From Desulfuromonas sp. (GTDB taxonomy: Bacteria > Desulfobacterota > Desulfuromonadia > Desulfuromonadales > UBA2294): DNA of 64,000 nucleotides. The position numbers and the translations under genes are program-made. The notes beneath the pieces are model-generated. The model had not been told where the DNA came from, searched no databases, and saw only the letters and a list, made by a program, of their open reading frames with translations. Positions 1 to 58,074 of the stretch are shown here, piece by piece; the first letter of the stretch is position 1; the number at the start of each line of letters is the position of its first letter. The stretch covers positions 125,896 to 189,895 of the forward strand of contig PKUH01000110.1 of NCBI GenBank assembly GCA_002869615.1, given 5' to 3'.

Positions 1-3000
1 AGTCTTCGGCGTCGACCTCCGGCGCCGGCTGATAATCCTCAAGCAGGGGAAGGTAAACATGAAAAGTGGTCCCCTCTCCAGGGACGCTGTCAACGGTTAT
101 ATGGCCGCCATGCTGCGAAACGATACCATGGGCAACGGCCAGTCCCATACCGGTCCCGCTACCGACTTCCTTGGTGGTAAAGAATGGATCGAATATACGA
201 TCCAGATACTCCGGCTCAACGCCGTGGCCAGTGTCGCTTACCGAGATTACTGCGTAACAACCGGGTTGTGCTTCGGTGTCGGAAGGCAGTTCGTTGCTGG
301 CAAGGTCAACTTTCAACAGATTGATTTTCAGCAGCCCCTGCTCATTCATTGCATCGACAGCGTTGGCACAAAGGTTAATGAGAACCTGCTGCACCTGGGT
401 CGAATCAGCGTTGACAAATACGGTGCCCCTTTCAACCCGGGTCTGAATCTCAACGCTAACAGGAATGGTCGGTCGCAACAATTTCAGTGAATCGGAAATG
501 GTCAGGGAGAGATCAACCGCAGAGAGGGCCTGATCGTTATGACGGCTGAAGGTAAGAATTTGTTCGACGAGACTTTTTGCACGACTGGCGGCCTCTTTGA
601 TATGGCCAATGTTCTCGGCAGAATCGGTCGCGGTTTTCTGCTTATGTTGAACGATATCGATATTACTGCTAATAATCGCCAGCAGGTTATTGAAATCGTG
701 TGCAATGCCGCCACTCAGGGTGCCGATAGCCTCCATCTTCTGGGCTTGACGCTGCGCCTCTTCCTGCCGCAACCTGTCAGAAACATCGCGCATGAGGCCA
801 AAAAAGCCCATGACGTTACCGCCCGGGGTAAACACCTTGGTGCCAATGGTTTCACCGGGAAACAGGGAGCCGTCTTTTCTACGATAAGTAACGATATAGG
901 GTTCGGCAGCCTCTTCGGGGGACAAATTAAAGCGCAGACGGCCTTGCCGGAGGAATTCCTCTCCGCTCTCATAGAATACCGAAGTTGGTTTTCCAGCTAT
1001 TTCGTCCAGCGTGTAACCGAAAGTCTCGGTGAAAGCCTTGTTGATAGCAATAATACTTCTCTGCTGGTCGACAAGAACAGTGGCATCCGGAATCGAATCA
1101 AACAACGACTCAAGGGTTGCCTTATGTTCCTGCATCTCCCTCGCGGCCAGTCTCTGTTCGGTAACATCTTTCGCGATGCCGGAAAACCCGGAAACAGAGC
1201 CATCCGAACTTCTCTCGATGCTGATCGTCCATGATACATCATGAGTTCTCTGCCCATCGATACTGACCAGACGATTTTCATGTTTAAAAGTACTGTCATC
1301 ACTTTGCAACCAAGTACCAAAAGCGCTAGTAGTGCCGGAACGATCCTCGGGATGAATAAAATCAAAGGCCAACTTTCCAATGCACTCTTCAGGTTGCATC
1401 CCGTAGAACTTGGGTGCGGCATGATTAATAAAAACGATGTACCCCTCGGGGTTGACGCTAGAAATAAGGTCAGGGGTCCCCTCGACCAGATTCCGGTATT
1501 GTTCTTCACTCGACCTCAGCTTTTCCTGGGCCTGCAAGCGGTCAGAAATATCGACAAAACTGGTGACGGCACCGGTCACTTCGCCATTTTGTATCGTTGG
1601 GTAGCTCCAGAGTTCGACCGATAATGGTGTGCCATCAGCCTTCCAGAGGACTTCAGTTTTAAGATAGACTTTTTGCCCGGTTCTGAAAGCATCGTAAATC
1701 TGGCAATTTTCGACGGGATGCGGTACTCCATCTTTCGTTTTGTAATGAATTAACTCATGCATATTGCGCCCGAGAAGGTCGTTTTCAGATTCAAACCCGA
1801 GGAGTTCGACGCAGCTCTGATTGCAAAAGGTACAATTCCCTTGCGGGTCGAGACCGTAAATACCCTCTGCCGCAGAATCAAGTACCAATCGGACCTTTTC
1901 TTCGCTTTCTATTAATCTATTTTCTGTTTTTTTCAGTTCAGTTATATCCGTTGCAACTGCATAAACATTTCCATCCTGATCTGCCTTGGTCCCCCTCCAT
2001 GACAACCATTTATAGGACCCGTCTTTACACTCAAATCGATTTTGAAATTTCGAGACCGGCTCCCCTTTTAATTGTTTCAATGTTTCATCGACCGTACCTT
2101 GTCTGTCATCAGGATGGATAAATTCAAGAAACGGTTTAGACAAAAATTCTTTTTCTGAATAACCTAATATATTTCTTACTGCCGGGTTACATTTTGTGAA
2201 ATAGCCTGTGTTTGTATTTGCTGCGCAGATGATGCCTGGCGATAACTCGAGCGTTTTTTGTAAATCGAATTGGAATTCGGAAAGTTTTTCTTCGACCAGT
2301 TTGCGCTCAGTGATGTCTTGAATTGTCCCCCTTAAAAAGTATTTTCCCGATCCGGTTTTTTGTTCCGGTTCGCAAAGGGCATGTACCCATTTCACGCGAT
2401 CCGGGGCGAACACAAGTTTCAATTCAACATCATACGGCTTCCCCTGGTCTATCGCTCTCTTAATGACAGATGTGAATTTATCTAAGTATTCGCCCTTGTA
2501 AACATTTTTGTAATCTGACAAAGAATAAGGCCCATCTTCCGGGGCTCGATCATAGATCCGATAAACTTCCTCTGACCACTCAGGCACACCAATATCAGGA
2601 TCAAGTGTCCAGTTCCCGATATTTGCAATACGTTGAGCAAGGTTTAAATTCTTGTTACTCCTCCGTAGTAATTCATCCTGTTGTGCTTTTTCGGTGATAT
2701 CTTGGAAAAAGCCATAAATCCTCCGATTCGGCAGGTCGGACATGCCAACAACACGAACATACCGAAGGTTTCCTTTTGCAGTAATCAATTCCAGTTCAAG
2801 GTCAAAAGACTCACCATTCTCGATAGCTCTTTGTACCGCCTCTGAAATAACTGGTTTTGATGCCTCAGAATAGAAATTAATCCCTTCTTCAAGGTTCGGA
2901 TCATAGTTTATATTGACTTCATGGATACGGCAGACTTCTTCAGTCCATCGTTGCCTTCCGGTATCAATATCGACTTCCCAGCCACCAACCTTACCAATTT

Positions 3001-3442
3001 TGCTCGTCTCCTTGAGTAACTTCTGACTTTTCCTAAAAGCTTTTTCTGCCTCTTTATGAGCGGTAATGTCGGTTAGCATCCCGACAAACATAGTCGCTTT
3101 ACCGTCTTTTCCCAGTATGGGATTGACCTCGCCAAGCGTCCATACGACTTTCCCGTCCGAGTGAACCCAACGATACTCCGAGCGGAATTCCTTGCTATTC
3201 TCGAACGCTTTTTGCCATTCGGAAACCATTCGGTCTCGATCGTCGGGATGGAGGAAGGGGATCCAGTCAAAATCGAGTGCTTCTTCAGATGTCACTCCAA
3301 CCAGTTCAGCACATTTTTTATTAACATAGGTCGTCTTGCCCTGCGCATCGTTGAGAAAGATTCCAACCGGTGCGGACTCTGTCAATGCATGGAAGTTATT
3401 TTCAATTTCTGAACGTAGCGGTTTTGAATAACTCTCATCCAT
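1..3442 (-). CDS. multi-PAS sensor histidine kinase; C-terminus runs off the window start
   Basis: Long minus-strand frame missing from the ORF track because it has no stop inside the window. ATG at 3442-3440 is preceded by GGAGG. My translation gives several PAS-like blocks, the H-box MEAIGTLSGGIAHDFNNLLA (about 700-760) and the G2 box GSGTGMGLAVAHGIVSQHGG (about 100-160). Confidence 0.85.
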   Translation of the reverse strand, partial: MDESYSKPLRSEIENNFHALTESAPVGIFLNDAQGKTTYVNKKCAELVGVTSEEALDFDWIPFLHPDDRDRMVSEWQKAFENSKEFRSEYRWVHSDGKVVWTLGEVNPILGKDGKATMFVGMLTDITAHKEAEKAFRKSQKLLKETSKIGKVGGWEVDIDTGRQRWTEEVCRIHEVNINYDPNLEEGINFYSEASKPVISEAVQRAIENGESFDLELELITAKGNLRYVRVVGMSDLPNRRIYGFFQDITEKAQQDELLRRSNKNLNLAQRIANIGNWTLDPDIGVPEWSEEVYRIYDRAPEDGPYSLSDYKNVYKGEYLDKFTSVIKRAIDQGKPYDVELKLVFAPDRVKWVHALCEPEQKTGSGKYFLRGTIQDITERKLVEEKLSEFQFDLQKTLELSPGIICAANTNTGYFTKCNPAVRNILGYSEKEFLSKPFLEFIHPDDRQGTVDETLKQLKGEPVSKFQNRFECKDGSYKWLSWRGTKADQDGNVYAVATDITELKKTENRLIESEEKVRLVLDSAAEGIYGLDPQGNCTFCNQSCVELLGFESENDLLGRNMHELIHYKTKDGVPHPVENCQIYDAFRTGQKVYLKTEVLWKADGTPLSVELWSYPTIQNGEVTGAVTSFVDISDRLQAQEKLRSSEEQYRNLVEGTPDLISSVNPEGYIVFINHAAPKFYGMQPEECIGKLAFDFIHPEDRSGTTSAFGTWLQSDDSTFKHENRLVSIDGQRTHDVSWTISIERSSDGSVSGFSGIAKDVTEQRLAAREMQEHKATLESLFDSIPDATVLVDQQRSIIAINKAFTETFGYTLDEIAGKPTSVFYESGEEFLRQGRLRFNLSPEEAAEPYIVTYRRKDGSLFPGETIGTKVFTPGGNVMGFFGLMRDVSDRLRQEEAQRQAQKMEAIGTLSGGIAHDFNNLLAIISSNIDIVQHKQKTATDSAENIGHIKEAASRAKSLVEQILTFSRHNDQALSAVDLSLTISDSLKLLRPTIPVSVEIQTRVERGTVFVNADSTQVQQVLINLCANAVDAMNEQGLLKINLLKVDLASNELPSDTEAQPGCYAVISVSDTGHGVEPEYLDRIFDPFFTTKEVGSGTGMGLAVAHGIVSQHGGHITVDSVPGEGTTFHVYLPLLEDYQPAPEVDAED

Positions 3443-3718
3443 AAATAATCCTCCAGCGGACCGACCAAACCAGATAAGACAAGCTACGACCAAAGAAAAA
3501 GCTCATACGCACAGGCTAAATTTCCAACTCATGCAGAAGCTGCCTTTAATATGTTTTCTGAATTTTCAGTATAACAGATAAAAAGTAACCAAATTTCGAT
3601 CTGGCTCAAATTTTCGGCGAAATTTAACAACTGAAAAATGGCCACTGTGATCAATATTCAAACCACTGACATCCTGAAATGGCATAGGCTTCTGGCAATC
3701 GTGATTGTCGGGATGCTT

Positions 3719-5533
3719 TTATTCTTTTAGAACAGGGAACTCGATAACAACTTTAGTGTAATCACCAACTTCACTCTCAACAGAGATTGTGCCTCCATGC
3801 TTTTTTACTATATCGTAGGACATACTCAACCCAAGACCGGTCCCTATTCCGGCTGGTTTGGTCGTATAAAAAACATTGAATATCTTATTAATTTTTCCCG
3901 CAGGAATACCACATCCCTGATCCATAACTGACAGTTGCACTTTTTTTGCAGACCCTTCGCCCGTGCAACTTGCCTCTATGCGTATGACCTTACCCGGATC
4001 GTCCGTTGCATATTTTGCATTCAGGGCATGACGGGCATTGCTGATCAGGTTTATTAAAATCTGTTCCAGTTGCTGGACATTGCCCTGAACCTCAGGCAGG
4101 TCACTTTCAATGGAGACATCTACTGTTATCCCATCCTGTTCAAGTTGCCTTTCAAGCAGCTGCAATGGCGCACTAATGATCTCTTCAATCTGGAGCGGTT
4201 TAAACTCTTGTGCTTCCTGCCGGGAAAGGCTTAGCAGATTACTGACTATTTTAGCGACTCTGCCCCCTTCATACATAATACCGTTCAACATTTTGTCCGT
4301 GGATTCATCCTCCGGAAGTCGATTCTTCAGAATTTGTGCGTAGTTGATAACACCATTAATCGGGTTGTTGATTTCGTGGGCGACACCGGTCGCCAGCTCG
4401 CCAATCGATGCCATCTGGGCATCACGGATGCGCTGATCGAGCATTTTTTTCCGCTCGATCCAGTTTCGACAAAATGCTCTGGCCAAAAACCAGGCCCCGG
4501 AGAAATAGAGAAGGGCCAAAACCACGCCCAAAGTGATAAACACATTTTCCACATAAGAGACCGAAGCGGAAAGGAGATCTTCCGGAGTGTGCAGAACAGC
4601 ATACCAGCTATAACCGGAGTAAGGACCGGTCACGTTTCGGTGAGATGATTCGTCCCGGTTGCCGGCAGGGCTGATCGGAGCGATTTTGGAATAAACAAAA
4701 AGGCCCTGATCGTTTCTACTGAAATCGGCTCCTCCTTGTCCCATATCGTCCCATATATCGGGGAAATCCTTGTTAAACCGATCATCCCGGTCATACATGA
4801 ATCCCCATTCCTTAGCGGAATTCGGATGGGAGAGATAGAAGCCTTCCCGGTTCATCAGCATTAAATGCCCGGACAATGATCGTTGCGTATCACTCCTGAT
4901 CTGGTCAATTAAACGTTCAGCCAGGTAATTAAAAACAACGATACCGCGCTTCCTGTTTTTCTGGTCAAAAACCGGAATACCGAAACGGATCATCGGCTTG
5001 ATCGGCTCTTCTATCCGCCCATTTTCTACATTCAAATCGAGAGGTGACACGAATACGGAACCTGAATCGAGCCTGTAAGTATCGGTGAAGTAATAACGAT
5101 CCGACTTATCCTGAAGCTTTTGCCTGGGGATGGCCAGCGCCTTCCCGGCCAGGTAATTGACACGGATTTTCTCAAGACCGGAGTGATCAATGAAGCGGAT
5201 CTGATCAAAAACCTTTCGGCTCTCCATGAGTACGCTCCAGTCGTGCTCTATTTGTTTGATCTTCTCATCCGAAGGGGTTGTTAAATATACCTGAAAGGAA
5301 TGATTGCGACTCAACGCGATCAATTCTGCAATTACGGCGTCAAACTCTATGGAGACACTATTCTCAACTGAAAGTAAAGCCCCCGTACTCTGGCTCTTGA
5401 TATCGCTCAGATGTCTCTGGTATTGGGTTTGAAACAACAGAACAAAGATGATGATGGTAACGATTGAAGGGATGGCGAAGAGGGGATAAAAAATCTTCCG
5501 AAAATCATTTCGTGCACTATCGTCCATTTTCAT
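3719..5533 (-). CDS. sensor histidine kinase with large periplasmic (Cache-like) domain
   Basis: 604 aa. N-terminal TM, about 300 aa sensor region, second TM, H-box ELATGVAHEINNPING, HATPase motifs DQGCGIP and GTGLGLSMS. Confidence 0.9.
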   Translation of the reverse strand: MKMDDSARNDFRKIFYPLFAIPSIVTIIIFVLLFQTQYQRHLSDIKSQSTGALLSVENSVSIEFDAVIAELIALSRNHSFQVYLTTPSDEKIKQIEHDWSVLMESRKVFDQIRFIDHSGLEKIRVNYLAGKALAIPRQKLQDKSDRYYFTDTYRLDSGSVFVSPLDLNVENGRIEEPIKPMIRFGIPVFDQKNRKRGIVVFNYLAERLIDQIRSDTQRSLSGHLMLMNREGFYLSHPNSAKEWGFMYDRDDRFNKDFPDIWDDMGQGGADFSRNDQGLFVYSKIAPISPAGNRDESSHRNVTGPYSGYSWYAVLHTPEDLLSASVSYVENVFITLGVVLALLYFSGAWFLARAFCRNWIERKKMLDQRIRDAQMASIGELATGVAHEINNPINGVINYAQILKNRLPEDESTDKMLNGIMYEGGRVAKIVSNLLSLSRQEAQEFKPLQIEEIISAPLQLLERQLEQDGITVDVSIESDLPEVQGNVQQLEQILINLISNARHALNAKYATDDPGKVIRIEASCTGEGSAKKVQLSVMDQGCGIPAGKINKIFNVFYTTKPAGIGTGLGLSMSYDIVKKHGGTISVESEVGDYTKVVIEFPVLKE

Positions 5534-41723: not shown

Positions 41724-41810
41724 GCCGAAGTGGTGGAACTGGTAGACACGCCGTCTTGAGGGGGCGGTGACTTAACGGTCGTGCGAGTTCGAGTCTCGCC
41801 TTCGGCACCA
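41724..41810 (+). tRNA. tRNA-Leu (anticodon GAG)
   Basis: GCCGAAG acceptor stem, long variable arm, T-arm GAGTTCGAGTCTC and encoded CCA. The anticodon loop is TTGAGGG. The secG-tRNA-Leu(GAG) linkage mirrors secG-leuU in E. coli. Confidence 0.92.
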
Positions 41811-41856
41811 TTCAAAAACAAGTAGTTGAAATTACTAGACTTTAACTACAGAATTG

Positions 41857-41913
41857 ACAGCGCTACACAAAATGCTACACTGCGAGGTGAGCTACGTGAG
41901 CGCTGTTTTTTTA
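41857..41913 (+). terminator. hairpin plus T-run after the tRNA, within the track's 5' extension of the integrase ORF
   Basis: CAGCGCT...AGCGCTG inverted repeat followed by TTTTTTTA. It contains GCTACAC twice. Confidence 0.45.
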
Positions 41914-41931
41914 TCTAACATACCGGTCAAT

Positions 41932-43419
41932 ATGCAGTTACGTAATAAAAGATATCATTACCGTAGGCGTGTACCTGCGAATCTGGTTGAATTATTCAAC
42001 AGAAAAGAGATCACCAAATCTCTCCACACAACTGAGGGCAGAGCTGCCTCGCGTTTAAAGAACAAGTTAGACGGTGAACTTGAAGCCCTCTTTCAAGCAT
42101 GTCGTTTTAATGCACTCTCCCAAGATGAAGCCCAGCAACGCCTATCGCTTATCCTCACAGGTAAACCATTACCTGATCTACAAGAAGCAACTGAAACCAA
42201 AATCACTACTGTTAAGACTCGGAACAAACGAGCCGGCAAAAGGCTTTCTGAAGCAGTTGATGCTTACTGCAAAGAGAAAGAGCATTCCTGGACGCAGAAG
42301 ACCAAGAAAGAATACTCTGGCATCTATGATCGCATAATTAAGGGACTAGGAGACCCTTGGCTAAATGATCTTGAACGCACTGACCTTGTAATTTACAGAG
42401 ATACGTTAACTCGTGAAGGCAAGAGCATTAAGACCGTTAACAAGTATCTTGAAATCCTCTCTACAGTTCTTAAACACGCGAGCAGGTTAAAGTGGATTCA
42501 AGGTAATCCTGGTGAAGGGCTCGGATTGAAAGACAATAGACGCCCTGATGAAATGAGAAGAGCGTTTACTGTCAAAGAAATCAAAACAATCTTTGAAGCG
42601 CTGCAACGAGATAAGAAGTTCTTCTATGAACAGGGCCGCCATGAACGCTACTGGCTTCCCCTGCTCGGAATCTACACTGGTGGTCGTGTTAATGAACTCG
42701 CCCAGCTAGGGATTAAAGACATTATTATCGAGGATGGAATTCCAACCATTGAAATCACTGAAAATGGCGATGATAGTAAGAGCGTCAAGACTTCAAATTC
42801 CAGACGAAAGATTCCTATCCATAAAGACCTTCTGACACTAGGGTTTCTGGTCTATGTCAACAATATCAAAGCACAGGGGAACAATATGCTTTTCCCAGCC
42901 TTGATCAATGGTCCCAATGGATACTCCCACTATTTTGTTAAACACTTTTCAGGTAAGGCCGGGTGGTTAAGGAAACAGCTTAAAGATCTTGAGAAAGGTG
43001 TAGCCTTTCATAGCTTCAGGCATATATTTATAGACATACTTAAGAACGCTGAAATATCAGAACGGCTCATCGAGGAGATTGCAGGACATCGCCTCACCTC
43101 CATGAGCCTCGGCAGATATGGCAAGCCTTACAAAGTCGATGTGCGCCTTAAGGCAATCAACAAGATCGACTACGGCTTGATTCCCAAAGTGAAGCCGGAA
43201 GTACGATTGGTTGATATTGAAGGCACTGATGCAGTTGAAGAACATGACTATCTTGTATGCGGGAAGACCAGTGTTCGTATCATCCTTGAAGATAAAGAGC
43301 AGCCTTTAGAATTGAAACAATACAAGCGTCCAGACCTACATGGCTACAGTCCATTCCATAAAGAGATAGAGGGTTTTGTTGAAGATGAGCTAGTTGCTAA
43401 GGATAGCCTTGACGAATAA
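41932..43419 (+). CDS. int: tyrosine site-specific recombinase (island integrase)
   Basis: Start preferred at MQLRNKRYHYRRRVP (ATG at 41932). Catalytic pattern GGRVNE (R), HSFRH (H-x-x-R) and LGRYGKPY (Y). It lies immediately 3' of a tRNA at the compositional break. Confidence 0.9.
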   Translation: MQLRNKRYHYRRRVPANLVELFNRKEITKSLHTTEGRAASRLKNKLDGELEALFQACRFNALSQDEAQQRLSLILTGKPLPDLQEATETKITTVKTRNKRAGKRLSEAVDAYCKEKEHSWTQKTKKEYSGIYDRIIKGLGDPWLNDLERTDLVIYRDTLTREGKSIKTVNKYLEILSTVLKHASRLKWIQGNPGEGLGLKDNRRPDEMRRAFTVKEIKTIFEALQRDKKFFYEQGRHERYWLPLLGIYTGGRVNELAQLGIKDIIIEDGIPTIEITENGDDSKSVKTSNSRRKIPIHKDLLTLGFLVYVNNIKAQGNNMLFPALINGPNGYSHYFVKHFSGKAGWLRKQLKDLEKGVAFHSFRHIFIDILKNAEISERLIEEIAGHRLTSMSLGRYGKPYKVDVRLKAINKIDYGLIPKVKPEVRLVDIEGTDAVEEHDYLVCGKTSVRIILEDKEQPLELKQYKRPDLHGYSPFHKEIEGFVEDELVAKDSLDE

Positions 43420-46313: not shown

Positions 46314-46568
46314 TTAGACTTCTTGCTGCCTGACAAACTTTTTCAAACTTATACTTCCTTTTGCCGAATTACATTTACTACATGCAAAATCCAGATTACT
46401 CGGTGCCCAAGTTCCACCTTTGGACAACGGCCTCAAGTGATCCAGTGTTGCCTGGGAATATGTAAGCTTCCTGTCACAATATCGACAAGTCACATAGCCT
46501 CTGGATTTCTTGTTTTTGAACAGGTGCTTTTTGAGTGCATTCTTTGATCTTGAGTTTCTTGCAGACAC
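46314..46568 (-). CDS. small HNH endonuclease
   Basis: 84 aa with CRYC...DHLRPLSKGG...N...CSKCNSAKG. Confidence 0.85.
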   Translation of the reverse strand: MSARNSRSKNALKKHLFKNKKSRGYVTCRYCDRKLTYSQATLDHLRPLSKGGTWAPSNLDFACSKCNSAKGSISLKKFVRQQEV

Positions 46569-46597
46569 TTATTACTACCCCCTCCAACACTTATTCT

Positions 46598-47113
46598 TTA
46601 CCTACACATCCTATCCCGTTTACGCCTCATACTATTATCAAGTCTAGTCTTTGCCGTATGACAGTCATCACATAGAGTAGCCAGGTTAGCGATACTGTTA
46701 TCACCACCATTCATCAATGCTCTCTTGTGGTCAACTTCTAGCTTATATGTGCTCCCACATATCACGCACTGATGACCATCACGTCTTTTGATATATCGTT
46801 TAGTTTCTTGGGATACATCACGTTCATACTTGACCAGGTTGCAATCTAATGCGCCTACATTTTCGTTTGCTTCCCTGTAGTAGCTATAGATTGCTCGTTC
46901 ACGCAGTTCACCCTTGAGGGTTTTGATCTCTTTAGTTGGTTTGTTGTAACTAGGTGTGCTGCTCTGTTTCTTATAGCCAGAGTTGTGATAGTGGTACTCT
47001 CCAGTCTTTCTGTTTGTATGACCACCATTTGAATCAGTTCTGCCAGAGTGGGAATAGCTGAAGGTGCTTATTAGTATTAAGAGTAAGAGTATTGTGATTG
47101 ATTTATCAATCAT
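46598..47113 (-). CDS. secreted YHYH-motif + HNH nuclease domain protein
   Basis: 171 aa. Signal peptide, GEYHYHNSGY, then CVICGS...EVDHKRALMNGGDNSIANLATLCDDCHTAKT. Confidence 0.82.
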   Translation of the reverse strand: MIDKSITILLLLILISTFSYSHSGRTDSNGGHTNRKTGEYHYHNSGYKKQSSTPSYNKPTKEIKTLKGELRERAIYSYYREANENVGALDCNLVKYERDVSQETKRYIKRRDGHQCVICGSTYKLEVDHKRALMNGGDNSIANLATLCDDCHTAKTRLDNSMRRKRDRMCR

Positions 47114-47114
47114 G

Positions 47115-47801
47115 TTATCTCAAATTTTCTAATAGGTAATTAATTCCATCATCAACACTGCCATTAGATATATAGTCACAAAATGAATGCCCACCATTTC
47201 GCCTAACTACATCAATGTTGACGCTGTTTCTCTTTAGATACTCACTGAACCTTCGGTCTTCCTCTTCAGTGCCATCATCTATATTACTAAAAACTTTTAT
47301 TTTAAGACTGTTGATGTTGATCCTGTTCGATGCAATTGCAGCTTCTGTCATTCCTGCCCCGGCGAAAGTTACTAGTGCCTTAACTGGGGCTAAGCTCATT
47401 GCCAAGAATGTAGCTACATATGCACCATAAGAGTTGCCTGCGATTGAAATGTTGCGTGGTCTAGGGCTTCTTGTTTTAGGCAACAACTCTTGCAATAAAA
47501 ACATCATGAAAGCATTTAAAAAATTATCGTGAGTGTGTTTCCCAGATGGAGGAGACGAAAGAGCTATAAAATCACAATTTATGTTTGCATTGCCTATTGC
47601 ACATTTAAATATTTCAGCAAGCTTATCAGGGCTAGAGTTCATTCTCTGAGCGTACTCTTGCTCGTTAATCGAACCTCCAATAAAGACAACTAGATTATTG
47701 GAGGATTCTTCGCCAGCCCAATAATAATCAGCGTGGGTATTTCTGCCTAATGTTGATACATCTATTATGATCTTTCTGTGTTCCAATGTTGTATATTTCA
47801 A
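47115..47801 (-). CDS. alpha/beta hydrolase (Ser-Asp-His triad)
   Basis: 228 aa with nucleophile elbow GNSYG, NIDDGT and GGHSF. The TTG start overlaps the upstream stop. Confidence 0.7.
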   Translation of the reverse strand: MKYTTLEHRKIIIDVSTLGRNTHADYYWAGEESSNNLVVFIGGSINEQEYAQRMNSSPDKLAEIFKCAIGNANINCDFIALSSPPSGKHTHDNFLNAFMMFLLQELLPKTRSPRPRNISIAGNSYGAYVATFLAMSLAPVKALVTFAGAGMTEAAIASNRININSLKIKVFSNIDDGTEEEDRRFSEYLKRNSVNIDVVRRNGGHSFCDYISNGSVDDGINYLLENLR

Positions 47802-48106
47802 CGACCAGGTAAATACTGACTACAAGACATGAGTAGGTTGTATAGCCTGCGGTCAAACTCATCACCTTGAGGGTTGGGTTGCGCCTTCATCATCTGGTCA
47901 TATTCTGATTTTCCGAACTCAGATTCCATCCCATCAGCAAAACATTGACAATACTTTTGCGCAGTTTTATCTGGTAGTCCCTGTGATGACATACTCATCG
48001 CACAGCGGTCCACGTAAGCTTTCTTGGCATCAGCAGGCCACTCTTCGGCATGCAAGTTTATTACTGTCAACAGGATGAAAAGGAAAACTATAACCGTTTT
48101 GTTCAT
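47798..48106 (-). CDS. small secreted Cys-containing protein
   Basis: 102 aa with signal peptide MNKTVIVFLFILLTVINLHA and AGGAGA upstream. Confidence 0.65.
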   Translation of the reverse strand: MNKTVIVFLFILLTVINLHAEEWPADAKKAYVDRCAMSMSSQGLPDKTAQKYCQCFADGMESEFGKSEYDQMMKAQPNPQGDEFDRRLYNLLMSCSQYLPGR

Positions 48107-48121
48107 AGCATTTCTCCTGAT

Positions 48122-48171
48122 TGAAAAAAGTCTCCTGCCACCGAGGGGAATGTTGCTTGTAGTGACAGGGG
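48122..48171 (-). terminator. rho-independent terminator after the cyclase operon
   Basis: Minus-sense CCCCUGUCAC...GUGGCAGGAG (the G-U wobble forms only on the minus transcript) followed by ACUUUUUUC. Confidence 0.6.
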
Positions 48172-48179
48172 CAATAAAA

Positions 48180-49517
48180 CTATTTAATATATACGCCTAT
48201 CCAATCCTCAAATAGCACATTTCCACTATCTCTTTCAGAGCTTACCTTAGCACGCATAGTATGAAGACCACGATAAGATGTATATTCATCAAGGGTTGCT
48301 TCGTGCACTCTATCTGGCTGTCGATATTTGGGATTAGTTGTTGGAGATAAGTATTTAGTTCCAGTTATATGTTCCTGCGCACTATTCTCTTTTTCAGCTT
48401 CATTTCCATGGTTATGTTTGTAGAATTCAACTTTCAATTTACCCATACCAGTTAAAGCCGCACTTCTGACTTGGACTCTAAACTTTAAAGACAATCCTTT
48501 ATCTAAGCATCTTGATAAAGATGGGTAAGGAACCCAATCGTTTTCGGTGTCATATACTTCACATGAAAAACTGAAAGCACTATTAGATCTTAGCTTTGGG
48601 ATATCTTGTTTTCCGCTTTTTACTTCAGGAGGGAATGGCAGAAGTCTTTGGTAATGGTCACCTTTGATCAGGCGACATGAATAATTAATAGAATTACCGT
48701 TCTGATCAGTGATGTTGGGTTTTACATGCAACTCTTGTTGACCAGCAGATTCCTTAATTTCAGAATACTCTTTCGGAAAATCAATAAAGTTAATTAAGGT
48801 TTGTCCAAGCATTGTACTGTTGCTTCTAGCTTGCGACTGTAACTTTGAAGCGAAGTCTACTTGTAGTCCATGTGCAGTAACTTCAGTAGCATTTCCAAAA
48901 CCATAACATGACCATAAAATCTCATCCGTATCGCCAAAATCAAGTCCAACTCTTACTGCAAGTTCAATATCAGTACTTAATCGTTCATTCAATGATGGGA
49001 ACACATAATCTCTCATGATTAATCTGAGTGTGTTGGAGGCATTTATAGCGTTAACTATTGCATCTTCTTTGCAGATACTTTTCCCCCCAAAAAACGCCAT
49101 AAGGGCATCCCCCATCAATCTATGTGGGACTCCATCAAATGATCGAACTACATCTATAGCAGCTTGCAAAATTCTATTCTTAACGATAGCTGCCTGCTTC
49201 AACGGCAGAAGTAAATTGAGTCGAGAGCTTCTTTTAATATCTAGAAACAGAGTTGCGATATAGTGATTCTCTGTATGATCACAATTTTCTAAGTGCAGAA
49301 AGTCAGGGTGTGAACCCATCCCATTAGTATTTAACCCCTGCTTTCCAAAAAGTGGTCTAATGGCTTTTTGAAAATCATACTCTTGAGGAGTGCCTGTTGC
49401 TAATTGACTTTCGTGAGCAGTTGCCTTGAAAAGCTGCCCCTCAGACATTTGAACATTTAACGTACTGTTATTGAAAAAGAAATTACGTGTAATCTCCCCA
49501 AAGTCTACCCTGCTCAT
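48180..49517 (-). CDS. class III nucleotidyl cyclase with about 185-aa C-terminal extension (PycC-like)
   Basis: 445 aa with ATLFLDIKRSS, LMGDALMAFFGG, VRVGLDFGD and GLQVDFASKLQS. The start overlaps the upstream stop as ATGA. Confidence 0.8.
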   Translation of the reverse strand: MSRVDFGEITRNFFFNNSTLNVQMSEGQLFKATAHESQLATGTPQEYDFQKAIRPLFGKQGLNTNGMGSHPDFLHLENCDHTENHYIATLFLDIKRSSRLNLLLPLKQAAIVKNRILQAAIDVVRSFDGVPHRLMGDALMAFFGGKSICKEDAIVNAINASNTLRLIMRDYVFPSLNERLSTDIELAVRVGLDFGDTDEILWSCYGFGNATEVTAHGLQVDFASKLQSQARSNSTMLGQTLINFIDFPKEYSEIKESAGQQELHVKPNITDQNGNSINYSCRLIKGDHYQRLLPFPPEVKSGKQDIPKLRSNSAFSFSCEVYDTENDWVPYPSLSRCLDKGLSLKFRVQVRSAALTGMGKLKVEFYKHNHGNEAEKENSAQEHITGTKYLSPTTNPKYRQPDRVHEATLDEYTSYRGLHTMRAKVSSERDSGNVLFEDWIGVYIK

Positions 49518-50176
49518 TTGCTATCCTTCTTACTTGGTTCGGAAGTTGATGGTTCTCTCTTTGAGACATTAGATTTTATTTCTTCTTGTGGCATAAAAAG
49601 TGACTCAGCTTGCTTTTTTGTTTGGGATACAGCAGATTTGCGAATAAGCTGCGAATCAATAAGAAGTCCTGAGCCTAACAATAAAAGTACAAAGCCAATT
49701 GCAACTAAAGCAGATTTTACCCAGAGGATTGATCTAGAGAGGAGCTTGAATTTTCCCGAGGCAATACTCGAAAGAACAACTGATTGATGACATAAATCAC
49801 GTAGCAACTCATCTTTTGTAACAGAAGAGAACTCATCATAGTACGAATCAGGGTTTGATTCTTTTTTTGCAATATGTACAAAAGAGATAAGTGACTTGTT
49901 GCCAGGAGTGGTGTTTGGGAAAATTGCATTAAATGCAAGTCTTGCTGAGGAAGCAAGTAAGAAAAAAGTCACACTAAACACAATACAAGCAACAATTTTA
50001 TAGAGAGTTGCGCCACACACTAACCATATCTTTGGGCAGTTATATGCTAGTGCTGAAATGCTCGCTACGCTAAAGGTTAACAATAATGCAGCTTTAGTAT
50101 TAGTGCTATTGATGTAACTGTCGTTCCGCTTAATAATATCCCACTGCCAAGCAATTTTATCATCTATACTGCCCAT
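49514..50176 (-). CDS. 3-4 TM protein resembling the DUF5706 / Pycsar-effector family
   Basis: 220 aa. N-terminal WDIIKRNDSYINSTNTKAALLL leads into TM helices, with a charged tail. I saw no cNMP-binding motif. The family assignment is from memory of the family pattern only. Confidence 0.6.
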   Translation of the reverse strand: MGSIDDKIAWQWDIIKRNDSYINSTNTKAALLLTFSVASISALAYNCPKIWLVCGATLYKIVACIVFSVTFFLLASSARLAFNAIFPNTTPGNKSLISFVHIAKKESNPDSYYDEFSSVTKDELLRDLCHQSVVLSSIASGKFKLLSRSILWVKSALVAIGFVLLLLGSGLLIDSQLIRKSAVSQTKKQAESLFMPQEEIKSNVSKREPSTSEPSKKDSK

Positions 50177-50199
50177 CTCACCCTCTCATTGATTTATGT

Positions 50200-51033
50200 T
50201 CAACTTTCAGAGCGTATTAGCCTGTTTATTCTCATGATTTCTTTTGGCCAAGATTCAGGATCTGGCCATTCAAACAAGTAATGGTAATAATTGTAAGGTG
50301 TAACGCCATCGTCATAATACCAGTTCCAACTTAAATCTGAACCCTCTTGCAGAAATTGATGCAAATAAGGATGTAGATTCTTTGCCAGGTCTTCACCGAT
50401 GGCTATTACATTTGGATTTGCTAAAGACTCTAGTTTAGAGGCTCTATTGGCTGGGCTACCAACGGCAGTAAGAAAGTTTGTACCCTGCATTCCAATTCTT
50501 GAAATTAGTACTTCACCAAATTCTACCCCAATCCTGAATTTAAGGGCTGGAGCCCCATGCTCCGCTAAATGCGGTATAACATCATTAATCATCAGATATT
50601 TAATTGTTTGTGCAACCTCAATAGCCTCTCTCGCTATTTTGTGCTTGTCGGGTGTCTCAGTTCCGATAATTGCCATCACACCATCTCCAGTATGTTTTTC
50701 AACAGTACCCTTCCATTCACGTACAACCTTCATTACGCTAGTGGTAGCTACATTGAGAATCATAAGAGTATCTTCAGGTGGAAGAGGTGATGTGATTGCC
50801 GTGAAATCCTCAAAATCAAAAAACAGTATCGCTACGCTCATACGCCTAGACGAACCAATCTCTAACGCGGTAAGATCAGGCATAGTTCTAGCGTTAGGGA
50901 TGTTGCTCGTACGCTTCACGTTCCACTTTGTTCGCAGTAACACAAAGTTACTCAATTGTTTGTGAAGGCGTAAACTCCATTTACCTGATAATGGTAAATT
51001 CATAATCTTCGTTTTACCTGTGAGGGGTAACAT
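50200..51033 (-). CDS. stand-alone class III nucleotidyl cyclase (second cyclase of the operon)
   Basis: 277 aa with AILFFDFEDFT, EKHTGDGVMAIIG, FRIGVEFGEV and GSPANRASKLES. The start could be the ATG at 51003. Confidence 0.8.
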   Translation of the reverse strand: MLPLTGKTKIMNLPLSGKWSLRLHKQLSNFVLLRTKWNVKRTSNIPNARTMPDLTALEIGSSRRMSVAILFFDFEDFTAITSPLPPEDTLMILNVATTSVMKVVREWKGTVEKHTGDGVMAIIGTETPDKHKIAREAIEVAQTIKYLMINDVIPHLAEHGAPALKFRIGVEFGEVLISRIGMQGTNFLTAVGSPANRASKLESLANPNVIAIGEDLAKNLHPYLHQFLQEGSDLSWNWYYDDGVTPYNYYHYLFEWPDPESWPKEIMRINRLIRSES

Positions 51034-51082
51034 AACTCTCAGTTATGTTCAGTTGAGTGAGGGCATTGCGCAGCAATATGTT

Positions 51083-51100
51083 GGATAAGACGTCTTATCC
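51083..51100. promoter_or_regulatory. perfect 18-bp palindrome GGATAAGACGTCTTATCC upstream of the cyclase operon
   Basis: Read directly from the sequence. It lies 50-67 nt upstream of the ATG at 51033. Confidence 0.5.
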
Positions 51101-51346
51101 GACGTACCGAATACGAAAACGACCTCACAACCATTCTAATTTTGATCCTGCTTATTCAGCGAACTTGTATATTTGAAGTTTTGAAACTAATTCTTGCGAA
51201 CAAAGTGAGCGCCTGGGATTAAACCGGCGTCATTAACACTTCGCTATATGGAGGGAGTTCTTTGGTGTGTCCTACTTATTACATTACATTCAAGCCCCCT
51301 CAAGCTTGGGGCTATAATACTAGAATTCAATTACTTTAACAAACAT

Positions 51347-51844
51347 TCATATTATCCCTCTGTCAGCAAGTGATGCATAGCCTCTAGAGCCGACAACTAT
51401 TGAATCCAGCATCCTGATTCCTATAAGATCAGCAGCTTCATTTAACCGCTTAGACAATTCGACATCCTCCCTGCTTGGAGTACTGTCACCGCTTGGGTGA
51501 TTATGTACGAAGATAATCCCAGCTGCTGATGAGAGTAATGCTGACTTGTAAGCATCACGTGGATGAACAATGGCTGCATTCATAGAGCCTGTAGCAATTC
51601 TATCTATAGCCAGTATTCTGTTCTTCGAATCGACATGCACTCCGATGAAGTGTTCCTTTGTTTCGTTTTTCAGGAACCCGAAGAGTTCATAGACTTGCTC
51701 GGATGATGTAATTGGCTTGTCAAGCTTGTCATAGTCAGGCAGCTCTTCCTTGACGATTAACGTGGAGTAGACTGGAGTAATGACTTTGAATCTAATAGTC
51801 GGTTCTGTGTTCATGTCTGTAATGGTTTCGATTGCGAATGTCAT
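51347..51844 (-). CDS. radC: RadC-like JAB/MPN domain protein
   Basis: 165 aa with the JAMM motif HNHPSGDSTPSREDVELSKRL. Confidence 0.88.
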   Translation of the reverse strand: MTFAIETITDMNTEPTIRFKVITPVYSTLIVKEELPDYDKLDKPITSSEQVYELFGFLKNETKEHFIGVHVDSKNRILAIDRIATGSMNAAIVHPRDAYKSALLSSAAGIIFVHNHPSGDSTPSREDVELSKRLNEAADLIGIRMLDSIVVGSRGYASLADRGII

Positions 51845-51930: not shown

Positions 51931-52818
51931 TTATTCGTTGACTGCGGTGTCCTGGACTTCTGGTTGTGCGAGATCCTTGAGGTATTCGAATGCAACTGAA
52001 GCCTGGTTCGCTGCTTTGAATAATATGTTCGGTTTCGCTCCTATAACAGCAGCCCAGTTGGCCAGATATTCAGGATGTTGGTTCTTCTCCAGAGTAATGT
52101 TCAGATAGCTACAGAGGAATGCTGCTGACAGTTCAGCGATCAGTTCTTCATATCCATAAGAACTCGTTCCGAGTTTACCGAGAGTGATTCGACTAAGACG
52201 AGTTGAATGGCCGGACCAGTGTGACAGTTCATGAAAGATCGTGGCGTACCACTCATCATGGTTCTCATACTCCTCCACAACCGGAATATAGATGAGATCC
52301 TTCTTGGGATGGTAAGCAGGACGAAGTCCTTTCTTCCTGATAATGTGAGCTCTCGTGCGCTCGATGAAGTCATCAGCTAACGGATGCCTCGCCTGAGCTT
52401 TGTCATAGTCGGATACGGTCTTCTCCGGTTGACTCAAGTCTGTTTGCTCGATGTTGAACACGGTATAGCTGCGAGTTATCCATCTATACCGCTTCTCCTG
52501 CTCTTCCTCCTCCCCACCATCAGTCTCAATCTCCTTCGGTTCAAAGAAGACGATCTTCTGTCCAACTGAACCTTTGATGACATTACCTCCCATCAGCTTG
52601 CACTGCTTAAAGGTCATCCAGTACGGAGTTGTAAACCCTTCCTGTTCAGCCTTCATCCATAACAGCAAAACATTGACACCCTTGTACATCCTCCTGCTCT
52701 TATAGTTCATCGGCATACAGTTCGATTCGACTAATGGATTAATCCACGGAGCTGTACCTTCTTCCAGTTGCTTCACAAAATCCTTAACCAGTTCATCCAT
52801 CCATTGTTGTTTAGACAT
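51931..52818 (-). CDS. ardC: ArdC-like antirestriction protein (ssDNA-binding N-domain + zincin metallopeptidase)
   Basis: 295 aa. N-terminal EEGTAPWINP pattern and C-terminal FHELSHWSGH (HExxH). Confidence 0.88.
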   Translation of the reverse strand: MSKQQWMDELVKDFVKQLEEGTAPWINPLVESNCMPMNYKSRRMYKGVNVLLLWMKAEQEGFTTPYWMTFKQCKLMGGNVIKGSVGQKIVFFEPKEIETDGGEEEEQEKRYRWITRSYTVFNIEQTDLSQPEKTVSDYDKAQARHPLADDFIERTRAHIIRKKGLRPAYHPKKDLIYIPVVEEYENHDEWYATIFHELSHWSGHSTRLSRITLGKLGTSSYGYEELIAELSAAFLCSYLNITLEKNQHPEYLANWAAVIGAKPNILFKAANQASVAFEYLKDLAQPEVQDTAVNE

Positions 52819-53370: not shown

Positions 53371-53776
53371 TCTCCTTTTCGTTTGAGTTGATATATCGTC
53401 TGGCCAGACGTAAAAAAGACACGAGGCAACAGAGCCAAGTGTCTTGGGTGGATAGTGTTTATATAGCTATAGATGCTAAACCACAGTACGTACTGCAATT
53501 ACAGTTTGCGTTGATTTGGAGCTTAATATGGAGCTCAGAGATGTGTTCTGTTGGTGAGTTTTAAGTGCTTATATAGTGATCTATATTTCCAGAAAAAGAG
53601 ACCCCGGGGTTGTTATATAGAGCGAAGTCGTTTCTATTCTTTCTACCTGGGGTTTAGGTCCGCAGAGTCATTTTGGATTTGGATTGGGCCTTTTGAACCT
53701 TTCTATAAATCCTAAGGAGATATAAGAATTAGATATAGTAGGATTAATAATAATTCTGAGCCAACCTTCTTATAAA

Positions 53777-53802
53777 TGGTGACTTATGAGAAGCTTTTTT
53801 CT
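53777..53802 (-). repeat. island repeat core copy (sense TTCTCATAAGTCACCATTTATAAGAA)
   Basis: Imperfect inverted repeat TTCTCATAA/TTATAAGAA. Related copies lie at 56188-56213 and 57987-58012. Confidence 0.8.
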
Positions 53803-55003: not shown

Positions 55004-56103
55004 TTAATTGAGACTTTCCGGCTGTTGATTCACAGTTAAATATTCCTTTGGTGTCAAGTTGCCGAGCGACTCATGTGGTCGCTCTTCATTGTATTCAACA
55101 ACCCAATCATCTGTGATCTGTTGCACTTCTTGAAGATGATCGAAAACATACATGTCCAGAACTTCAGTACGGTATGTCCGATTAAATCTTTCAACAAAAC
55201 CATTTTGCATGGGCCGTCCCGGTTGGGTGAACTCAAGTTTGACGCCGTTCCGATCTGCCCAGCCCGCAAGCCTCACACTCGTTAATTCAGGTCCGTTATC
55301 CACTCTTAACTTCTCTGGATAGCCTCGCCAGGTAGCAACGTTATCCAGTATCCACACAACCCTTTCAGCCGTAAGGCTGTTATCAACTTCAATGGTCAGT
55401 ACTTCACGATTATAATCATCAACCAGGTTGAAAGTCCGAAAACGTCGGCCACACCAAAGCGCATCACTCATAAAGTCAGCGCTCCAACACTGGTTAATGC
55501 TACCAGGTACGCTTAACGGTTCCGGGTTTCTTTTGGGCAGCCGCCTCTTACCTTTGCGCCGAATGTTAAGTTTTAGCCCACAGTAGACTCGATAGACCCT
55601 TTTATGATTCCATTGATGTCCACGCCGACGAATCATCTGAAACATTTTGCCAAATCCATATTGAGGCTTTTTCTCTGCCAGATCCAACAGCACCTTGATG
55701 ATCGGACCATCCTTCTCTCGGTTTGGTTGATAATAATAGACCGAGCGATTCAAGGAAACTACCTGACAGGCTGCACGGGTACTCAACCCTACAGATGCTT
55801 TGGCAAAATCAACCAGACCCCGTTTCTCCGTCGGCGTTAAAGCTTTTTTTCAATGATCTCCTTTAACGCACGATTCTCCAGGCTGGTGTCGGCAAACATC
55901 TGCTTTAAACGCCGATTTTCCTTCTCAAGTTCTTTCAGTCGCGCCAGCTCTGACACTTCCATTCCGCTGTAAAGCGATTGCCAACGGTAGAAAGTTGCTC
56001 GGGATATTCCGTGCGTACGACAGACTTCCTGATACGATTTGCCAGCTTCAGCCTCTTTTAGGATCTTGACGATTTGTGATTCACTGAACTTGGATTTACG
56101 CAT
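55004..56103 (-). CDS. IS3 transposase OrfA/OrfAB produced by programmed -1 frameshift
   Basis: OrfA (55837-56103) is an HTH protein. OrfB (55004-55786 and upstream) has the DDE pattern WSADF...VDNGPE...ERFNRTYRTE. The -1 frame after the slippery site continues as KKALTPTEKRGLVDFAKASVGLSTRAACQ... Confidence 0.9.
55844..55850 (-). promoter_or_regulatory. A AAA AAG slippery heptamer for the -1 frameshift
   Basis: Sense ATT GAA AAA AAG CTT TAA at the end of orfA. Confidence 0.8.
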
Positions 56104-56783: not shown

Positions 56784-56887
56784 AAAACTGTCCTAAATAT
56801 GCCGCAATTTAAGAAGCTCAAAACCATCTCGCCAGTAGTGACTTATGAGAAACTTTATATCACGGTGTCTATGAAATCAGGGTCGAT

Positions 56888-57841: not shown

Positions 57842-57986
57842 GTCCCCTCCGAGCTACAGATTCCTACAAACATACATAAATAATAAAATCCAATCTACTT
57901 GAAATATATCGAACGGTCAAACAATTGACTTTCTTATTTGTCCTACTATTTCTCATCCAAGGTTCAAAACCAGCCAGATTTCCCGT

Positions 57987-58012
57987 TTCTTATAAACCCT
58001 GACTTATGAGAA
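57987..58012 (-). repeat. island repeat core copy (sense TTCTCATAAGTCAGGGTTTATAAGAA)
   Basis: It heads a roughly 175-nt leader homologous to the one upstream of 54832. Confidence 0.8.
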
Positions 58013-58074
58013 GCGGATTAAACTTAGCCATGTACTGCTGTAGAAAGATGAGGTAAAGCTTTTTTGTAAGCTTA

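Follow-up and report, generated by a model that had tools for sequence, protein, structure and literature searches.

In Pycsar, a PycC-type class III cyclase acts with an adjacent effector of the PycTM or PycTIR type, which responds to the cCMP or cUMP that the cyclase produces during infection, and the pair gives protection against phage. The canonical Pycsar system, reportedly described by Tal et al. in 2021, is a two-gene system with a transmembrane (TM) effector, represented by EcPycC-PycTM (clade E, or "Pycsar-2"). Loci with several cyclases are the subject of a single sentence in a recent preprint (Chakravarti et al. 2026; bioRxiv 10.64898/2026.08.12.744502), which concerns multi-cyclase "Pycsar-1" loci and reports no tests of them. 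Thoeris systems with several ThsB/TIR sensors and CBASS-DAC (PMC13069673) are multi-sensor systems for which different sensors for different phages have been proposed. Here we describe an operon in a 64,000-nucleotide stretch (the window) of a metagenome-assembled genome of Desulfuromonas sp., in which two different PycC-type class III cyclases, of 277 and 445 amino acids (aa), flank a single PycTM effector. An earlier reading made without database searches (the sequence-only reading) had proposed that a single TM protein lies between two different cyclases in a Pycsar-like operon, departing from the two-gene description. Our analysis bears this out, since PycC cyclases and an adjacent PycTM are present as three coupled genes and not as one cyclase with one effector.

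Like canonical EcPycC-PycTM, the window has a PycTM gene followed by a 445-aa PycC gene with a 4-bp overlap, and the large cyclase has the same N-terminal helices, core, AGS-C domain and F/R active-site residues. In contrast to the canonical system, the window PycTM is of another lineage, and its gene is preceded in the operon by that of an additional cyclase belonging to a different clade. The window resembles the multi-cyclase Pycsar-1 loci in having more than one PycC-type cyclase per locus; however, those loci hold standalone Pycsar-1 cyclases, whereas the window combines a Pycsar-2 (AGS-C) cyclase, a cyclase of another clade and one effector. Multi-sensor Thoeris and CBASS-DAC likewise couple two signal-producing enzymes to one effector set but differ from the window in enzyme families and signals. 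The preprint sentence on Pycsar-1 loci was the only mention found in the literature, and the three-gene architecture (the trio) is not a catalogued subtype. The cross-clade combination, a Pycsar-2 AGS-C cyclase grafted onto the cyclase-effector pair of another clade, is undescribed and conceptually extends known designs.

All three open reading frames (ORFs) lie on the minus strand, with coordinates exactly as first read: the small PycC-type class III cyclase at 50200-51033 (277 aa as called), the PycTM effector at 49514-50176 (220 aa) and the large clade-E PycC at 48180-49517 (445 aa). The 23-nucleotide (nt) gap between the small-cyclase and PycTM genes (50177-50199, minus strand) was also correctly described and holds a ribosome-binding site, GAGAGGGTGAG, before the PycTM start. 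The PycTM stop and the large-cyclase start overlap as ATGA (49514-49517, minus strand), read as AAATGAGC, an arrangement of translational coupling. In all 21 aligned homologues of the small cyclase, the start lies at or near the position of Met11. Because the homologues begin there, the true start is probably Met11, with its ATG at 51003 and a product of 267 aa, and the annotated start at 51033 is probably 10 codons too far upstream. The intergenic region upstream of the operon (51034-51346, minus strand; 313 nt) contains one promoter-like match, at 51342 to 51314, and is likely the operon's promoter region.

Both outer genes gave significant cyclase matches, as expected from the motifs first noted in them. 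The large cyclase matched the PADLOC PycC model PDLC00764 over its full length with 456 bits and Pfam AGS_C (PF18134) at residues 311-445 with 43 bits; no match to Pfam PF00211 was found. Its closest relatives in the PDB were the cCMP synthase EaPycC (8jsf; E 3e-33) and the AGS-C domain of EcPycC (9ard; E 4e-11, TMt 0.73). In the AlphaFold2 (AF2) model (predicted local distance difference test [pLDDT], 87.7), for which EaPycC was the best fold match, helices H6-14 and H48-57 precede the core, and residues 18-37 form a disordered linker; the core spans approximately residues 82-245 and is followed by a C-terminal AGS-C beta-sandwich at approximately 311-445. The AGS-C domain (48183-48587, minus strand) is therefore identified by Pfam, by the match to 9ard and by the modeled beta-sandwich. 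AGS-C is a putative sensor domain by name (Pfam description), has an immunoglobulin (Ig)-like fold and alters phage-family specificity in CBASS.

In EaPycC, residues F100, R142 and Q144 specify CTP, and D102 and D146 are metal ligands. The key residues of the large cyclase were F91, D93, R133, M135, D137, D221 and K225, the first five of which align with EaPycC F100, D102, R142, Q144 and D146. F91, D93, R133 and D137 are thus conserved, and Q144 is replaced by M135, as in the whole EcPycC-like subfamily; all 40 of the 40 family-invariant residues are intact. Vibrio, Klebsiella, Kosakonia, Pantoea, E. coli and Pseudomonas commonly carry homologues with 38-53% identity. Both marks of "Pycsar-2," the C-terminal AGS-C and an N-terminal bihelical extension, are present, and the large cyclase is a member of clade E of Tal et al., the "Pycsar-2" of the 2026 preprint. 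In the published assignment, cCMP is the product of clade E only and cUMP that of clades A-D; its clade membership thus gives cCMP as the predicted product of the large cyclase.

The small cyclase matched Pfam PF00211 with 57 bits (cut-off, 21.9) and PADLOC PycC models with, at best, 97 bits. Its AF2 model (pLDDT 90) has a class III fold to which one helix is added at the N terminus and one at the C terminus, and it was covered better by PycC structures (TMq 0.63-0.67) than by canonical adenylate and guanylate cyclases (TMq 0.58-0.61). It belongs to a coherent family of approximately 264-aa proteins (the small family; about 85 clusters, 44-74% identity), which is nearly all metagenomic. Searching E. 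coli genomes and plasmids with the operon by megablast gave nothing, plasmids searched by tblastn with the small cyclase gave matches only at about 35% identity or less, and the family proper was not found in IMG/VR. A profile search of genome contigs with the small-family alignment gave, among the matches listed, distant relatives only (at most 35% identity). NCBIfam held no model for any of the three operon proteins.

The middle protein had been likened to the Pycsar-effector family with three to four TM helices. The relationship to Pycsar effectors was upheld by Pfam PF18967 (PycTM; 36.2 bits, cut-off 27.2) and by the PADLOC 2TM effector/PycTM models (113 and 102 bits), and it is a TM protein, but with about three helices: the hydrophobic segments, two strong and one weaker, lie at approximately residues 28-44 (by eye), 55-77 and 150-173 and are followed by a hydrophilic tail at residues 175-220. 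Its closest counterpart was the TM protein of L172 (comparison loci are designated by L numbers), with an overall identity of 56% that rises to 66% within the first 163 residues, and the two paired at 100% bootstrap. These data place the window PycTM in the small-cyclase lineage. The TM proteins that partner clade-E cyclases, for example that of L171 (185 aa), end shortly past the last TM helix. We considered whether the ATGA junction came from a chimera, in which the 5' part of the PycTM gene would derive from the small-cyclase lineage and the 3' part from a clade-E system, and rejected this, the tail at 175-220 being of the L172 type in length and character.

Class III cyclases are dimers with active sites at the interface, and the two window cyclases are encoded in one operon. 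The sequence-only reading had judged them non-redundant by eye and had offered three mechanisms, foremost an obligate heterodimer with one asymmetric active site, and otherwise two distinct signals or a regulatory partner; either of the last two may apply. For the heterodimer, mammalian adenylate cyclase C1/C2 and soluble guanylate cyclase alpha/beta, both among the PDB matches, would be precedents, in that a pair of distinct proteins with the class III cyclase fold is encoded together. However, catalytic residues are lost in a complementary manner in these precedents, whereas both window proteins are complete. Alignment with EaPycC and CyaC gave F71, D73, K113, T115, D117, T189, N196, R197 and K200 as the key residues of the small cyclase and bore out the motifs first noted as well as the Lys/Arg and Asn/Asp differences. 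These differences proved to be clade traits, with Lys in all small-type PycCs and Arg in clade E, and the Lys/Arg difference does not point to complementation within the pair. Both metal Asp residues and every family-invariant residue are kept in both window cyclases, as they are in both cyclases of a second trio, L098; in the window pair the base and transition-state residues are also retained, with the Lys/Arg, Asn/Asp and Lys positions occupied in each, and complementary degeneration is absent. Furthermore, many genomes have one or the other cyclase family as the sole partner of a PycTM, the two cores share only about 21% identity, and the N- and C-terminal dimer-contact elements differ. 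Both cyclases appear to be intact enzymes of the homodimer type. Since the metal Asp and all family-invariant residues are kept in both, an obligate heterodimer of the 277-aa and 445-aa proteins is unlikely, and we consider it the most improbable of the explanations weighed here.

The active sites were also compared with those of cyclases with other products. In the cGMP-producing PucC of Pucsar, the base-recognition position, four residues ahead of the second metal Asp, is a Glu (E118 in PfPucC); this position is K113 in the small and R133 in the large cyclase, so that neither carries the mark of PucC. A product for the small cyclase guessed from its CyaC-like Lys-Thr pair (cAMP-like) was rejected, because the Lys is common to the whole group of small-type PycCs and because AnPycC, a cUMP enzyme, uses other positions.

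We examined the two cyclase families in other genomes. The small family nearly always adjoins a PycTM gene; the usual order is TM then small cyclase, and the order of the window, small cyclase then TM, is found in L096, L106, L164 and L172. The small-cyclase/PycTM pairs of L172, L164, L161 and L206 are orthologous to the window pair, with up to 72% (cyclase) and 56% (PycTM) identity, but lack a clade-E cyclase. The closest relative of the window pair is L172, which matches it with 72% identity in the small cyclase and, at the nucleotide level, with 72% identity across window positions 49740-51005, and which has the same ArdC-N and RadC neighbors; it has no large cyclase, and approximately 500 nt of non-coding DNA lie past its TM stop. 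The large family was in a two-gene arrangement in all 27 of the 27 other loci (TM then large cyclase in 22, large cyclase then TM in 3, convergent in 2). One of these relatives, L171 in a P4-like satellite of Klebsiella (TM then PycC), has the same 4-bp overlap as the window.

The trio recurred once, in L098 from a groundwater metagenome, where the PycTM (2165-2749), an AGS-C PycC (2762-4066) and a small cyclase (4067-4945) are tightly packed. Recurrence of the trio elsewhere, which had been set as a check on the proposal, was thus observed, but with a different gene order (TM, large, small). INDEPENDENCE and polarity were assessed by neighbor-joining (NJ) bootstraps on a trimmed cyclase-core alignment. 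The small family was monophyletic (99% bootstrap), as was the large family together with EaPycC (100 of 100 NJ bootstraps). The small family grouped with other Lys-type small PycCs at 75% bootstrap and with the large family at only 11%. Each cyclase of each trio had its nearest relative in a two-gene locus, and the two trios were therefore assembled independently. The L098 TM scored a median of 77 bits against small-family TMs and 43.5 bits against large-family TMs. Both trios have a PycTM of the small-cyclase lineage with a clade-E cyclase directly 3' that lacks an effector of its own. These observations indicate that, on two occasions, a small-cyclase Pycsar gained an effector-less clade-E AGS-C cyclase immediately 3' of its PycTM gene. 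In the PycTM tree, small-family and clade-E effectors were intermixed in a single group, separate from those of more distant small cyclases (64% bootstrap), and this disagreement between the PycTM and cyclase trees hints that the two cyclase families may use interchangeable effectors.

We tentatively favor, at a little under an even chance, the explanation that a second sensor cyclase, bearing AGS-C, was captured by a resident two-gene Pycsar and that both cyclases feed one pore-forming effector. The starting point was a small Lys-type PycC with its own PycTM, as still found in L172, and a clade-E PycC with AGS-C, lacking its own effector, became joined to the 3' end of the PycTM gene through the ATGA overlap. 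Each cyclase homodimer would sense its own phage cue, and AGS-C would give the large cyclase a different phage-family specificity. An activated cyclase would make a cyclic mononucleotide, and either product would open the single PycTM pore and abort infection. Such a two-input, one-output OR gate would cover a wider range of phages and be harder to escape. The sequences show what the genes are and how they are coupled, that the active sites are intact, where the parts came from and that trios were assembled twice independently; we infer that this PycTM receives signals from both cyclases and that the gain lies in a broader phage range.

Several observations weigh against capture of a second sensor and, in part, favor its main rival, in which the large cyclase is an orphan without cross-talk. 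According to the latter, two Pycsar systems came to be adjacent in a defense island or a clade-E cyclase was inserted, its own PycTM was lost, and the large cyclase is expressed but signals to nothing here or is decaying. The trio is rare, being found in approximately 2 of approximately 14 distinct small-family loci with enough flank to judge and in 0 of the 27 other large-family loci, and it is absent from the closest relative, L172. The window trio is present in three further assemblies, but with identical sequence, and these four records therefore provide no independent evolutionary evidence. In L205, the mirror image of the window, two PycTM genes accompany one cyclase, which indicates that module shuffling yields odd stoichiometries and that modules are gained and lost without functional logic. 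The PycTM phylogeny behind the proposed effector compatibility has only moderate support (64%). Finally, the base-contacting residues differ (K113/T115 in the small cyclase, R133/M135 in the large), as do the clades and their reported products, cCMP for clade E and cUMP for clades A-D. Because of these differing residues and published products, the two cyclases may make different nucleotides, and one effector may be unable to read both. On the other hand, the ATGA overlap formed where a tail ends that is peculiar to TMs of the L172-type lineage, the 40 family-invariant positions of the large cyclase are intact, and two independent events had the same polarity, with a clade-E cyclase placed after a small-lineage TM and its own TM lost each time. 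Taken together, we regard an orphan large cyclase as unlikely, though it ranks first among the alternatives to the capture of a sensor.

Another reading is a cross-clade, two-signal Pycsar, in which cCMP comes from the clade-E cyclase and another cyclic nucleoside monophosphate (cNMP) from the small one. The PycTM would then be promiscuous or require both signals, and clade-E AGS-C cyclases would be add-on sensors that have been captured recurrently. We consider this distinctly unlikely. Relay, amplification or two-signal control, in which one cyclase is the primary sensor and its product, alone or together with the infection cue, activates the second (positive feedback) or the effector needs two different cNMPs (an AND gate), is a further alternative; relay-like or amplified signaling has been suggested for multi-cyclase loci (Chakravarti et al. 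2026), the Pfam name of AGS-C denotes a putative sensor, and the differing base-contacting residues suggest different products. However, Pfam and PADLOC searches found a cNMP-binding domain in neither cyclase, the Ig-like AGS-C is tied to phage specificity rather than to nucleotide binding, and each family signals alone in two-gene systems. We therefore rate relay control as quite improbable, a shade below the cross-clade alternative.

One more alternative is a Panoptes-like decoy or guard. One cyclase would constitutively make a nucleotide that keeps the PycTM shut or baits phage sponges or phosphodiesterases, and depletion of that nucleotide or a second signal would trigger the pore. The constitutive cyclase and TM effector of Panoptes are reported to guard against phage anti-signaling proteins (PMC12657218, PMC11974786), and phage Apyc1 nucleases degrade Pycsar signals (PMC9117128). 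In the window, no sequence sign of constitutive activity was seen and the effector is a standard PycTM, and both cyclase families behave as ordinary activators in two-gene systems. We consider a decoy very improbable; like relay control and the heterodimer, it is less likely than an orphan large cyclase.

If both cyclases signal through one PycTM, as the capture of a second sensor would have it, the operon would be the first demonstrated case of two sensors integrated by a Pycsar, in parallel with multi-TIR Thoeris and CBASS-DAC. It would then offer a natural system for asking what PycC cyclases, and AGS-C in particular, sense, and how strictly PycTM distinguishes between the cNMPs of different PycC clades. 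Defense finders that apply a two-gene rule label such loci plain Pycsar and miss the extra sensor.

Other arrangements with additional genes were observed among relatives. Two-cyclase layouts in distant relatives indicate that extra cyclases are a recurring theme in the family. In a tandem layout (L005, 4958-7221; L174; L175, 5395-7795; L177; L178; L179, 4173-6585; L180, 5503-7855), a divergent cyclase-like protein of 300-410 aa is followed by a cyclase of approximately 250 aa and a PycTM. The divergent proteins scored 22-37 bits against PADLOC PycC in the four tested; they keep both metal Asp as well as the Lys, Asn and Lys positions, with the first Lys missing in L174, and two residues ahead of the first Asp, where Phe is otherwise conserved, they often have Ser. 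In a third two-cyclase, one-effector arrangement, two PycC paralogues of approximately 250 aa are divergently transcribed, and in L003 (4684-6753) one of them is followed by a PycTM; the hosts are a haloarchaeal chromosome (Halorarius halobius, L003) and three metagenome contigs (L137, L139 and L145).

Within the small family, the two PycTM genes of L205 (3666-5804; 175 and 185 aa) lie upstream of the single cyclase, with an integrase adjoining. In L204 (128-2641), the gene found 100 nt past the TM and small-cyclase pair encodes a protein kinase of 346 aa that weakly matches TCAD9 and could be an accessory gene or a neighboring defense gene. The small-family Pycsar of L161 (1-5261) lies in a dense defense island with a type I restriction-modification methylase, Abi_C and a NERD protein. 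A 471-aa gene upstream of its PycTM was considered as an analogue of the third gene and rejected, as it is not a cyclase; its product only faintly matched an Apea-like HEPN.

The 3' end of the window operon is less clearly delimited. A hairpin with a U-run terminator had been described past the large cyclase, and a 9-bp stem with an 18-nt loop and U6 does exist at 48124-48169 (minus strand). The element is weak, however, being statistically like shuffled sequence (z = -0.73), and a pattern scan made no minus-strand call. Because of this and because the next co-directional gene begins 73 nt past the large cyclase with its own ribosome-binding site, the end of the operon is uncertain. Directly after the large cyclase are two co-directional genes (47115-48106, minus strand) encoding proteins of 102 aa, with a signal-peptide-like N terminus, and 228 aa, with a 4-nt overlap; neither protein had a match in Pfam or PADLOC. 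Since the terminator is weak, these genes could share the operon transcript. The corresponding position in the Logan copy (L167) holds genes of 85 and 228 aa.

The operon's setting in a tRNA-integrated island next to anti-restriction genes was also read correctly. A tRNA-Leu(GAG) gene (41724-41810, plus strand) and an adjoining tyrosine integrase gene (41854-43419, plus strand) mark the near edge of a low-GC island, which starts there; the guanine-plus-cytosine (GC) content falls from approximately 0.54 in the host to approximately 0.39 near 42 kb. RadC (51347-51844, minus strand) lies directly upstream of the operon, followed by ArdC-N/MPTase (51931-52818, minus strand), both shared with L172. 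No att repeat was found within the window, and the island extends beyond the window's end. Downstream of the operon are two small HNH proteins and several proteins without known function. The HNH proteins (84 and 171 aa; adjacent, 46314-47113, minus strand) gave weak PADLOC matches to PtuB, ZorE and DpdF HNH modules and may represent another defense or mobility function of the island. An IS3-type insertion sequence within the island occupies 55004-56103 (minus strand), with an HTH_Tnp_1 ORF at 55837-56103 and an rve ORF at 55004-55786. A 35-nt motif with the core GTGACTTATGAGAAGCTTT occurs three times in the island (53763-53797, 56822-56856 and 57983-58017; 71-100% identity) and may be a shared regulatory or terminator element.

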